A stretch of DNA of 5,062 nucleotides, from IMG/VR virus record IMGVR_UViG_3300045988_114963; one strand, written 5' to 3'. The notes under the pieces are model-generated. The model saw only the letters and a program-made list of their open reading frames with translations, had not been told where the DNA came from and made no database searches. Position 1 is the stretch's first letter; each line of letters opens with the position of its first letter. Shown in pieces: positions 429-5,062 of the stretch. The position numbers and the translations under genes were made by a program. Source of the stretch: a virus.

Positions 429-440
429 TAGTTTATTTTT

Positions 441-489
441 GCGTCACCTACGCCAGTTATATCAAGTAAGTAACTGGCTTCGGTGACGC
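441..489 (-). promoter_or_regulatory. Large interrupted stem-loop in the VP3-VP1 intergenic region. Candidate viral-strand replication origin (Rep nick site in the loop).
   Basis: The outer stem is gcgtcacc (441..448) paired with ggtgacgc (482..489). A 3x3 internal loop follows, then the inner stem gccagtta (452..459) paired with taactggc (471..478). The minus-sense loop reads CTTACTTGATA. The 9-mer ACTTGATAT (complement of 459..467) is identical to the core of the phiX174 origin CAACTTG^ATATTAATAAC. Confidence 0.5.
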
Positions 490-972
490 CTATTTTTGTG
501 TTTCATTATTATTTTGTTCTAAAGTGTTACTTTTTTCTTGTGTTTGTTCACTACTTAAGGATTGTTGTGGTTCGTAGGAAGTATCTCTGCTACCATACAA
601 GCCTTGTTGTTGGAGATATTCGAGCGTTGCAGGATCATTCAATTGGTTGATGAAATTCATAGGATCGTGACCAAATTTTGCTCGAACGTAAGCGGGCAAA
701 CTGTAGAATTCTTCGCGAACTCCAGACACAAGCTCGAGCGCAGTGCTGTAATCGCCAGGGAGCGTTGCATCTCCGAACTGCAGATAAGCGTATTGAGAAC
801 TATCGCCGAGGTCAAGAGTCATGATGCCTTTCTGACCGTCTGCATACTTATTTACGATGTAATTGATATCAGTTTCATCTTTCTCGTCCTGAACTGTAAG
901 AGAGGGCATGGTAAACTCAATACCGCAATGATCATGTTCTTCTACAGGATCGTAAGCTGTCTTAAATTTCAT
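490..972 (-). CDS. VP3: Internal scaffolding protein VP3
   Basis: This is a 160-aa ORF with ATG at 972, preceded by AAAGGAGGTGA at 5-nt spacing. The N-terminal motif MKFKTAYDP...PSLTVQDEKDETDINYIVNKY matches the conserved gokushovirus VP3 pattern (PS-T-Q--KDE-DIN-I). The C-terminus is acidic and polar. Confidence 0.85.
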   Translation of the reverse strand: MKFKTAYDPVEEHDHCGIEFTMPSLTVQDEKDETDINYIVNKYADGQKGIMTLDLGDSSQYAYLQFGDATLPGDYSTALELVSGVREEFYSLPAYVRAKFGHDPMNFINQLNDPATLEYLQQQGLYGSRDTSYEPQQSLSSEQTQEKSNTLEQNNNETQK

Positions 973-1020
973 AGTTTCACCTCCTTTCGCAGGCGCCTAG
1001 ACGCGGCGGGCGTGGCGTAC

Positions 1021-2912: not shown

Positions 2913-3641
2913 TTATCTCCTTCCGAAATAACGACCTCCGAGGAAGCCAAGTACATTTTTGACACCTGAACCAATACCTTTGTAGAGGGAGGTGGTACCA
3001 CCAACTTTATCTTGAATACCTTTATAAAAATCTCTTTCCATGCCAAGCATCTCAGTCTGCATCTGGTCAAAAGCAGAAGCACTGTTAGACCTAGCTGCCG
3101 AGGCAATATTGCTTAAGGCACCAGACTGAAGATAAGAACCTTGAAGGCGCATATTCTCAAGTTCTAAGCGCATCTTTTCAAGCTCGTAACCAAGACGCTT
3201 TTCATAAGTCTGCTCACGAAGATTCAAATCGTTTGCAAGAATACCGTTCTGAAGAACTGTACCATGGGTACTCTGACGCACAGAATCGGCTTCTGCGACG
3301 TTTTTATCAATTTGAGATATTGCAAGATGCTCGGCATTCTTAGCCTGCCTTTCAGCGGCACTAGCGGCTTTAGCAGAGTTCATAGTAGAGCCTATATCAC
3401 TCATACCTACAGAAGCAGCCGAAGCTCCAGATATAGAACCGCCTATGCCATTAGTTGCGGCAAGAATAGGATTAAGACCAGCCTTGCGCATATCTTCTAC
3501 GGCCCATTGATAACGATGTTTATAGTTTTCAACATTCCACGCGTTAGCCTGTGCGGCATTAGCAGAATTGTAATGATTCTGAACTGCAGATCCTAAAACA
3601 GAACCAGCAACACTGCCTAAAGTATTAGAAAGCCATGACAT
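2913..3641 (-). CDS. VP2: Minor capsid / DNA pilot protein VP2
   Basis: This is a 242-aa ORF. ATG 3641 is preceded by AAGGAG at 8 nt, immediately after the VP1 stop. It has a Gly/Ser/Ala-rich N-terminus, the conserved motif YQWAVEDMRKAGLNPILA (gokushovirus VP2 pattern --AGLNP-LA), and a central heptad-like region EKRLGYELEKMRLELENMRLQ. Confidence 0.85.
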   Translation of the reverse strand: MSWLSNTLGSVAGSVLGSAVQNHYNSANAAQANAWNVENYKHRYQWAVEDMRKAGLNPILAATNGIGGSISGASAASVGMSDIGSTMNSAKAASAAERQAKNAEHLAISQIDKNVAEADSVRQSTHGTVLQNGILANDLNLREQTYEKRLGYELEKMRLELENMRLQGSYLQSGALSNIASAARSNSASAFDQMQTEMLGMERDFYKGIQDKVGGTTSLYKGIGSGVKNVLGFLGGRYFGRR

Positions 3642-3655
3642 AAAACCAACTCCTT

Positions 3656-5062
3656 CTAGAAGTGATCAACAAGGCCGGGCGTACCAAACATAGGCATAGG
3701 ACGCACAGTAGTGTAACGGAAGCCTATGTCAAGCAAGAATTCAGGCTCATCTTGAACAGCAATGATACGCTTAATAGGTGGATTTTCCATAATAAACTCT
3801 TCGTTGAGGGTTGGAGCATTTTTAAAGAACTGAGACAGATGCCAAACGTCAAGGTTACCACCAGTTACAGAGCTACGGAATTTACCAGTAATCTGCGAAG
3901 GTTTATAGCGATATTCGGCATAACGTTCCTGATAACCGAAAACAATAGTATCAGCTTTAGAACCTTGAGCATAGATCTCACGAAGCTCAATAGCCTGTTC
4001 GCCGAGATGCGCGAATGTAGGCCAATAGAAATCATAAACAGTAGAGCGAAGCCACATCTTATTGATGCCCTGCTGATAAGTAAGATCGGCACGAGCGCAT
4101 ACGAAGCCTATAATATAGCCATGTTCAACGAAAGACTTGGTAAAACCATGGAACTTGGCAGCAGTAACACCATAAGCAGAAAGGTTGCCTTGAGGAGAGG
4201 TGTCGTCGGTTGCAGAAGTCTGAGCTATTGGATTAACATTTACCATTTTAGTGAAAGAACCTAAAAACTCTGGACGCTGAAGACGGGCGTCAGGAGATAC
4301 TACGCCAAAGAAAGAGCGAAGCACTTCTGTATACCGACTACCACCACGGGCAAGACGTTCATAGAACTTCTGCATCTGGAAAGCAGTGCGTAAGCTGTTG
4401 ATAGTAAAGACAGAGGACTCGTCAAGATTCGCAATCAAACCAGACTGCGTCAAACCTTTAACAGTAACGTTATTAGTGGGCCAAGAAGAAACAGTAGGAT
4501 AATTCGAAACGCGACCATTTTTACCTGCAACAGCAAGAGCCTGAAGTTTATTGGTAGTACTTTCGTCGGTGATGGTACCGGTCTGAAAACCACTAATACT
4601 AAATTCACCTTGTACAGGAGCGGTACCAGCAAGACCTATAGAAACGCCAGGTCCCTTCTGCGTCCAAGGCAATGCCGAAGTGAAGTAATCATGACGCTTA
4701 CCGCGTGGCGGACAGGCATGACCAGGAATAGGTTGCCCATCGGCACCAAGAAGCCAAGAAGGCTGATCAGAAAGGCGAGTATAATCAATAACAGAATTTT
4801 CATCCGTCTTAATAATTTTAACAGACTTTTGGAGGTTTTCATCTCTAAACCATTCATTCCAAATAAGGTAAACACCACGGAATGGGAGTGCGTTAATACC
4901 AGATATATCATTAGTAGTATTGATAGGCAATCCAAAATAGTCCCAAAGAGTACCTATAAGCGCGTTTTTTTTAGAAGAACTACCTCTAATAGTAGGAATG
5001 ACATAATCAGTGCTATCACCAGGATCTTCCTGTTCAAAACAGAAATTCTGCCAGTGTTCCCA
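3656..5062 (-). CDS. VP1: Major capsid protein VP1, main body and C-terminus. It is open to the window edge, and the N-terminus is at 366..1 through circular closure.
   Basis: The track ORF 3656..4930 begins at an internal TTG. The frame stays open for 44 more codons to 5062 (WEHWQNFCFEQEDPGDSTDYVIPTIRGSSSKKNALIGTLWDYFG). Conserved gokushovirus VP1 blocks are YLIWNEWFRDENLQ, TINSLRTAFQMQKFYERLARGGSRYTEVLRSFFGV-SPDARLQRPEFLG and HGYIIGF. The stop is TAG at 3658..3656. Confidence 0.93.
   Translation of the reverse strand, partial: WEHWQNFCFEQEDPGDSTDYVIPTIRGSSSKKNALIGTLWDYFGLPINTTNDISGINALPFRGVYLIWNEWFRDENLQKSVKIIKTDENSVIDYTRLSDQPSWLLGADGQPIPGHACPPRGKRHDYFTSALPWTQKGPGVSIGLAGTAPVQGEFSISGFQTGTITDESTTNKLQALAVAGKNGRVSNYPTVSSWPTNNVTVKGLTQSGLIANLDESSVFTINSLRTAFQMQKFYERLARGGSRYTEVLRSFFGVVSPDARLQRPEFLGSFTKMVNVNPIAQTSATDDTSPQGNLSAYGVTAAKFHGFTKSFVEHGYIIGFVCARADLTYQQGINKMWLRSTVYDFYWPTFAHLGEQAIELREIYAQGSKADTIVFGYQERYAEYRYKPSQITGKFRSSVTGGNLDVWHLSQFFKNAPTLNEEFIMENPPIKRIIAVQDEPEFLLDIGFRYTTVRPMPMFGTPGLVDHF
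4964..5062. repeat. Terminal direct repeat, copy 2 (identical to 1..99), from circular-genome assembly overlap
   Basis: The sequence is the same 99 nt as the window start. It begins at the g before the T8 run (4964). Confidence 0.95.

Follow-up and report, generated by a model that had tools for sequence, protein, structure and literature searches.

What is the role of the strong hairpin that lies directly after the VP3 stop codon of a gokushovirus genome, and could it be the site at which rolling-circle replication starts? This question is raised by IMGVR_UViG_3300045988_114963, an IMG/VR virus record of 5062 nucleotides (nt; hereafter "the window", i.e., the whole stretch of DNA analyzed) that comprises a circular 4963-nt genome and a 99-nt redundancy, its first 99 bases being the same as its last 99. 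The nearest sequences by megablast are human and animal gut gokushoviruses, at 85–92% identity. Every long open reading frame (ORF) with a family match lies on the minus strand, which makes the minus strand of the window the viral, mRNA-sense one; in cultured microviruses, the packaged strand is the coding strand. A preliminary description of the window had interpreted the hairpin as a plus-strand replication origin from a short match to the phiX174 origin. Comparison across the subfamily supports this interpretation by inference, and we conclude that the hairpin, together with an adjacent conserved box which the preliminary description had overlooked and which probably provides the half of the origin that Rep binds, likely constitutes the double-strand origin (dso), i.e., the (+)-strand origin of rolling-circle replication.

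Read in the viral sense from 489 to 441, the hairpin runs GCGTCACC GAA GCCAGTTA CTTACTTGATA TAACTGGC GTA GGTGACGC. It is thus composed, on the minus strand, of an outer 5′ arm (GCGTCACC, 482..489) that is the complement of the box, an inner 5′ arm (GCCAGTTA, 471..478), a loop (CTTACTTGATA, 460..470), an inner 3′ arm (TAACTGGC, 452..459), and the box itself (GGTGACGC, 441..448). Folded as single-stranded DNA (ssDNA), the inverted repeat at 441..489 forms 8 + 1 + 8 = 17 pairs around an 11-nt loop, with a folding energy of −17.8 kcal/mol vs −4.65 ± 1.81 kcal/mol in 200 shuffles (z = −7.27), none of which was as stable (0/200). The 17-bp interrupted stem adjoining the VP3 stop and the sequence of its loop are hence present as first described. 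Two superlatives had to be toned down: the hairpin is one of the two strongest rather than the strongest, as a terminator-like region at ~1020–1058 reached −18.4 in the same 64-nt scan (the scan window with this score also covers an adjacent second small hairpin), and the VP3-VP1 spacer in which it lies (367–489, 123 nt) is not the main non-coding region but the second longest after 2529–2668 (140 nt).

The loop carries the heptamer ACTTGAT (461..467, minus), in which a Rep nick is predicted between G463 and A462 by homology with phiX174 CAACTTG^ATA. The longer 9-mer ACTTGATAT, which occurs once in the window (minus, 467 to 459), is indeed identical to phiX174 positions 4301–4309, within CAACTTG^ATATTAATAACACTATAGACCAC, and is on the viral-sense strand as claimed; position 4306 is annotated in the phiX174 record as rep_origin, where viral-strand synthesis starts. 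However, the chance expectation for an exact 9-mer, initially put at ~0.04, was 0.10 per window, and 20 of 200 dinucleotide-preserving shuffles contained a match, so that the 9-mer alone is not significant. Given this expectation, and since the base at its eighth position (window 460) is a private variant of this genome, we rejected the exact 9-mer as evidence. Nearly all close relatives have a G at 460, which adds a C-G pair with C470 to the stem and leaves a 9-nt loop; the conserved part of the loop motif is therefore the heptamer and not the full 9-mer.

The evidence that carries the origin interpretation comes from comparison with diverse gokushoviruses, picked by Rep similarity alone with the motif ignored: six genomes evenly spaced along a ranking of tblastn matches to VP4 (the Rep), a 46%-identical relative (L004), and 80 IMG/VR contigs retrieved through an alignment of eight Reps. 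A plain hairpin scan revealed the same design in each genome built from very different stems, namely a stem, a loop reading (C/T)T(A/T)CTTGA(T/C), and then (A/G)GTGACAC(C), with CTTGAT and GTGAC lying 13 nt apart in almost every genome and 14 nt apart in a small number. The strict pattern CTTGA-N12-16-GTGAC was found on the coding strand in 73/88 genomes and on the other strand in two, while the 13 apparent absences proved to be variants that were recovered by a covariance model. This model (R1; 56 positions and 11 pairs, built from 42 distinct elements) strongly matched each of the 86 diverse gokushovirus genomes, and likewise the window and L004, once per genome unit (26.7–73.7 bits); among these are 13 loci that had escaped the strict pattern and were not used for training. 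In the window, the sole strong match covers the whole element of hairpin and 3′ box at 435..490 on the minus strand (48.8 bits, E = 1.6e-10).

Both stem pairing and sequence blocks are conserved in this element. Across 83 distinct sequences, double-sided changes were observed in 11/11 pairs and 90.4% of cells were paired, compared to 21–42% when the partner column was slid by 1–3 columns, and 0/500 shuffles reached any of the observed measures; pairing is favored by an alignment fitted to the model, yet the slid controls and a plain MAFFT alignment agree. While stem sequence drifts, the loop yTACTTGAT is nearly invariant: CTTGAT was invariant in the 42 diverse training sequences and nearly so in the 83 distinct ones. 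The top of the inner 3′ arm, (G)TAAC, is also kept subfamily-wide. The box (subfamily consensus GGTGACACC) contains a GTGAC that was invariant in the training alignment and lies a fixed 13 nt from CTTGAT, which makes GTGAC(AC) a candidate Rep-binding locus near the predicted nick locus. The comparative check that had been proposed, i.e., whether motif and hairpin are retained with compensatory stem changes, was thus clearly positive.

Beyond the element proper, many environmental gokushoviruses (among L091–L170) have a small G+C-rich stem-loop directly 5′ of the hairpin, ~10–25 nt upstream of the element (e.g., GGCTGAATAAGCC, CCTCAGAATGAGG, CCCCCGAAGGGGG). The window, L004, and the Spiroplasma phage SpV4 instead share an architecture in which the box and a complement upstream of it form an outer stem. 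In addition, an inverted GTGAC copy is often found 3′ of the box (L150, L152, L168, L087, and L142; e.g., GTGACAGGGTCAC, GGTGACAGCAATGTCACC), suggesting binding by a dimer or the formation of another small hairpin.

The same pattern was found at a finer scale in the window clade, for which we analyzed two sets of 80 IMG/VR relatives each and two GenBank genomes. Loops were nearly all of the form ...CTTGATG in both IMG/VR sets, with TACTTACTTGATGTA in 71/78 scored loops of one of them, and the inner stem displayed compensation from GCCAGTTA/TAACTGGC to ACCAGTTA/TAACTGGT and to GACAGTTA/TAACTGTC (GCC/GGC to ACC/GGT and to GAC/GTC), as it does subfamily-wide. For 90 unique clade sequences, minor-allele fractions were lowest in the loop (0.005) and in the box GGTGACGC (0.003), compared to 0.02–0.03 in the stems and 0.02–0.09 in the flanks. 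The VP3-VP1 spacer also holds a second hairpin, AACCTAAGAAT...ATTCTTAGGTT (389–428, minus), just upstream of the ribosome-binding site of VP1. The clade keeps this second hairpin, with a compensatory switch between G-C and T-A, and it could be a complementary-strand origin or a regulator of VP1; L004 likewise has a second hairpin after the element.

Recognizable versions of the element were identified in 3/5 more distant microviruses (Rep 25–29% identical), and it is present in cultured phages. In Chp2 it reads CTAGCGTATAACAG[TCTACTTGATC]TGTTATACGCTAG GTGATAGC. Weaker matches, obtained with filters off and at the expected intergenic places, were found in phiMH2K (loop CCTACTTGTTGTAA), in SpV4 (GGGGCATAT[ATTACTTGTTATA]ATATGCCCC then TTGACGACA, with an outer stem like that of the window), and in Chp1 (loop CCTCTTGGC, box GAGCGACAC), with CTTG as the invariant core across these four phages. 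Four hairpins are annotated for Chp1 in GenBank, and the gokushovirus element is not among them. Phages bearing the element infect Chlamydia, Bdellovibrio, Spiroplasma, and E. coli or come from gut and environmental samples, and conservation across such hosts is more readily explained if the element is recognized by a viral rather than a host protein. A search of IMG/VR for TACTTGAT-N13-GTGACACC found this motif almost wholly in contigs of microvirus size, 75/80 among the matches listed being contigs of 3.3–6.2 kb; matches in contigs of 17–80 kb had neither hairpin nor model match and were discarded as chance. Rfam yielded one sub-threshold chance match only.

The position and strand of the element are also those expected of a (+)-strand origin. 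It occurs once per genome and is on the coding strand, which would be the strand displaced and packaged if these viruses resemble cultured microviruses, in 83/86 genomes. In genomes with the usual order VP1-VP2-VP3-VP4-VP5, it follows VP3 and precedes the start of rep at median distances of 61 nt and 173 nt, respectively, whereas in the order VP4-VP5-VP3-VP1-VP2, which the window has in common with L085, L086, and an E. coli prophage, it lies after VP3 and before VP1; in L090 it is between VP2 and VP4. In the window, as in all relatives, the element lies between genes. The prophage in question (L363) occupies 2.4339–2.4383 Mb of the E. coli E9 chromosome (NZ_CP104500), between a fim cluster and hipBA, and keeps an intact element (63.2 bits) in the VP3-VP1 spacer of its Rep-VP5-VP3-element-VP1-VP2 order. 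Known dso elements are usually located upstream of rep and comprise both a bind and a nick locus, and a hairpin serves to expose the nick site (PMC5703833, PMC5714925).

The presumed trans-acting partner is encoded in the same replicon. VP4 (1608–2528, minus) is an HUH rolling-circle Rep matching Pfam REP_ORF2-G2P (PF23343, E = 2.2e-17), which is its sole Pfam match: neither Rep_1 (PF01446) nor a helicase domain was matched. The gpA-type HUH Rep with a YxxxY active site that had been reported at the outset is borne out, as the motifs FVTCTF, PHYHYILF (HUH), and YVARYIVKK (YxxxY, i.e., YVARY) are kept in an alignment of eight divergent Reps. Microvirus Reps form one clade (PMC6668415). A search of VP4 for a rival nick site found no conserved candidate. 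A recurrent CTTGA(A/G) in rep was rejected as an origin: it is made of the Leu-Glu codons of a CRLE motif and reads CTCGAA in the window, and thus is not constrained at the nucleotide level.

Taken together, the Rep-core loop, the covarying stem, the block at fixed distance, the single copy, the strand bias, the usual site upstream of rep, the conservation across hosts, and the HUH/YxxxY Rep lead us to favor a (+)-strand origin; cleavage, its exact position at CTTG^AT (463/462, minus), binding by VP4, and the role of the box are all predictions. The predicted hairpin (z = −7.3) and its covariation suggest that the nick sequence can be exposed as ssDNA. Under this model, the inverted repeat would extrude in the supercoiled replicative form (RF), exposing yTACTTGAT as a single-stranded loop, and VP4 binding at the adjacent GGTGAC(A/G)C box may aid extrusion. 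VP4 would then cut CTTG^AT on the viral strand and remain on the 5′ phosphate, while the freed 3′-OH would prime leading-strand synthesis. After one round, the regenerated site would be cut and joined, and a circular viral strand would be released for packaging.

Several observations weigh against an origin at this site. The predicted nick sequence is not universal, as the loop reads CTAGAT in place of CTTGAT in a few genomes (L102, L105, L123, L146, and L155) and two loops lack CTTG (L165 and L170). CTAGAT may reflect an altered nick-site specificity, potentially covarying with Rep. Variation also affects the base that follows the predicted nick, which is mostly A, but T in SpV4 and phiMH2K and G in Chp1. 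In the window clade, the element lies ~1.1 kb downstream of rep and does not adjoin it. Beyond the shared motif, the 30-mer of the phiX174 origin (CAACTTGATATTAATAACACTATAGACCAC) is identical at only 7/21 positions, which is not significant (p = 0.21), so that homology of the whole origin with that of phiX174 is not established. Finally, the hairpin is missing from two GenBank relatives, members of one subclade, by different deletions: KT264819 (L003) has neither hairpin, and OP971933 (L272) is without the first one and has Ns exactly there, at the VP3-VP1 junction. A viable hairpin-less lineage, if true, would argue against an essential origin. These losses are nevertheless probably assembly or amplification artefacts across strong hairpins: the closest IMG/VR relatives keep the hairpins, and the deletion junction of KT264819 was found in no IMG/VR contig.

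A further difficulty is that the element is inverted relative to all genes in L161 (4372–4430), L165 (3158–3212, whose loop also lacks CTTG), and L168 (595–650 and 5241–5296), in each case after VP3, and in the more distant L362 (951–1006), after VP4. Separately, we observed that gene-order differences between clades all break at the element (VP3/element/VP4, VP3/element/VP1, VP2/element/VP4, and VP4/element/...). It is conceivable, although we would not count on it, that the element is a shared (+)-strand origin, that Rep nicks the non-coding strand in the inverted lineages, which would then package the antisense strand, and that the breakpoints reflect origin-mediated illegitimate recombination driving rearrangement. 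To our knowledge, no negative-sense microviruses have been described.

A hairpin in the packaged strand could alternatively serve as a complementary, (−)-strand origin, recognized by host primase, PriA, or RNA polymerase and priming the conversion to RF, in the manner of the G4 complementary-strand origin, the phiX174 primosome assembly site, or the single-strand origins of plasmids. The strand bias (83/86) would fit this role equally well, the element is a strong intergenic hairpin of that strand, and the complementary-strand origin annotated for G4 (NC_001420) is likewise intergenic. Moreover, conserved intergenic hairpins described in 2022 in two other microvirus clades, whose function was left open, have been considered in this light with uncertainty (PMC9865509). 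Yet a complementary-strand origin leaves unexplained why the loop equals a Rep cleavage core and is followed by a box at fixed distance, and the element has no similarity to the G4 sequence. Host-recognized origins would be expected to vary between hosts as different as those in which this element is kept, and the second conserved hairpin at 389–428 is available for the role. We thus regard this explanation as unlikely, although it retains some credit.

Another viral protein could also bind the element and leave it uncut, e.g., VP5 (ORF5) or a packaging factor, or it could be a regulatory site acting in duplex form, with the true nick located elsewhere. This would account for the four inverted cases, which a site functioning in either orientation would tolerate, and for the frequent palindromic nature of the box (an outer stem in the window, L004, and SpV4, and an inverted copy in L150, L152, and L168), which would suit a dimeric binder. 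It would not account for a loop motif equal to both the phiX174 cleavage core and pC194 CTTGATA, and non-coding sequence yielded no second conserved nick candidate, such that we judge a non-origin binding site to be improbable.

The chances appear slimmer still for an RNA-level or transcriptional element, i.e., an intrinsic terminator, an attenuator, or an mRNA-processing hairpin ending the VP3 message. The hairpin does adjoin the stop codon, and a T-run comes next in some relatives (L004 CCTTTTTC, L086 AATTTTTT, and L157), but the coding strand of the window continues AAAAATAAAC with no T-run, and CCAAA follows the box in most genomes. A terminator scan called 1047–1031 (minus) but not this hairpin, and a terminator would need neither an invariant loop nor a box at fixed distance. 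There was no Rfam match for the element, and inverted copies would alter the RNA loop. An XerCD/dif-like attachment site for prophage integration, suggested by ~11-bp inverted arms around a short spacer in the outline of a recombinase site, can be practically dismissed, since the element is intact and internal in the E. coli prophage, away from its junctions, and a conserved loop with covarying arms is the opposite of a recombinase site.

The other features of the window are all on the minus strand. The VP3 scaffold gene (490–972; Pfam Chlamy_scaf, E = 2.7e-23) ends in the stop codon at 490–492 that the hairpin adjoins, ORF5/VP5 lies at 1079–1387 and VP2 at 2913–3641, and the VP1 capsid gene (Pfam Phage_F) extends from ~366 across the junction to 3656. 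An 80-amino-acid ORF at 1338–1580, between VP4 and VP5 and overlapping the VP5 start, had no Pfam match; it contains a phiX-like CGTCTTGATAATGA, arising from Leu-Asp-Asn-Asp codons, that is kept in close relatives. Between VP5 and VP3, a canonical intrinsic-terminator hairpin with a T7 run (1020–1058) is kept in L003 and L004. Together with sigma70-like promoters at 2565–2537 and 1624–1596, this terminator suggests a VP4-VP5 transcription unit separate from VP3-VP1-VP2.

Few ssDNA phages are as abundant in gut and environmental viromes as gokushoviruses, and for the sampled genomes the element amounts to a precise prediction: 56 nt, a cut between G and A in CTTG^AT, and a candidate binding box. 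This prediction is directly testable because the element is present in cultured or resurrectable systems (Chp2, phiMH2K, SpV4, and E. coli gokushovirus prophages), of which the E9 prophage is a tractable one for studying the origin. The searchable literature contained neither a mapped or predicted gokushovirus origin nor a description of the hairpin, the original phiMH2K, Chp1, Chp2, and SpV4 papers, where an earlier mention is possible, lying outside that search. Within this scope, we found no prior description of a phiX174/pC194-type cleavage sequence placed in a hairpin loop next to a conserved box in every gokushovirus genome sampled. The element could be used as a marker to orient and circularize microvirus contigs and as a way to infer the packaged strand, and phagemids derived from gokushoviruses, or systems for producing ssDNA, might be built on it.

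Among known systems, the origins of the Bullavirinae phiX174, G4, and alpha3 are alike in several respects. Their 30-bp origin has the heptamer ACTTGAT around the cleavage point (9/9 bases in the window) on the viral strand, is served by an HUH Rep with two tyrosines from the same clade, and combines a cut site with a second conserved block, GAC being found 15 nt after ACTTGAT in both, which may be a coincidence. Yet the phiX174 origin lies within gene A and is not known to form a stable hairpin, whereas that of gokushoviruses would fall between genes, within a hairpin loop. Model R1 had no match in phiX174 at E ≤ 1 and, with filters off, none better than E = 3.9 among phiX174, G4, alpha3, and pC194 (none better than E = 4.8 for the three phages). 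The complementary-strand origin of G4 and the primosome assembly site of phiX174 resemble the element in being intergenic hairpins of a packaged microvirus strand, but share no sequence similarity with it; both are recognized by host proteins and are not known to be conserved between phiX174 and G4.

The loop of the window also resembles the origins of plasmids of the pC194/pUB110 family, whose nick consensus is CTTG^ATA, reportedly established by Gros et al. in 1987. The window loop holds an exact CTTGATA, and pC194 has CTTGATA at 993–999 (minus) within TTCTTATCTTGATAATAAGG, which we take to be the nick region of the plasmid. As in most gokushoviruses, the origin of these plasmids is usually upstream of rep (PMC5703833). 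They differ in that their Rep belongs to Rep_1 (PMC5714925) rather than REP_ORF2-G2P, in being plasmids and not phages, and in that the gokushovirus subfamily consensus is CTTGATG, not CTTGATA. Plasmids of the pT181 and pMV158 types also present the nick sequence in a hairpin loop with a Rep-binding locus nearby (PMC5703833, PMC5714925), a part for which the gokushovirus box is only a candidate. Their nick sequences and Rep families are unrelated, and the bind locus of pMV158 is 84 bp away vs 13 nt for the box.

Circoviruses, geminiviruses, and nanoviruses offer a further parallel, with an intergenic stem-loop, an invariant loop motif, an HUH Rep, and a conserved flank, cleavage being predicted in the gokushovirus case. 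Their loop, however, is TAGTATTAC or TAATATTAC, i.e., (T/N)A(G/T)TATTAC, compared to CTTACTTGATA in the window, and the Reps of these CRESS-DNA viruses (with circular ssDNA genomes that encode a Rep) have a superfamily 3 (SF3) helicase and a single catalytic Tyr, unlike the YxxxY of VP4 with no helicase domain match. Overall, the gokushovirus element would join a cleavage sequence of the phiX174/pC194 type to the way in which pT181, pMV158, and CRESS-DNA viruses typically present theirs, in a hairpin loop.

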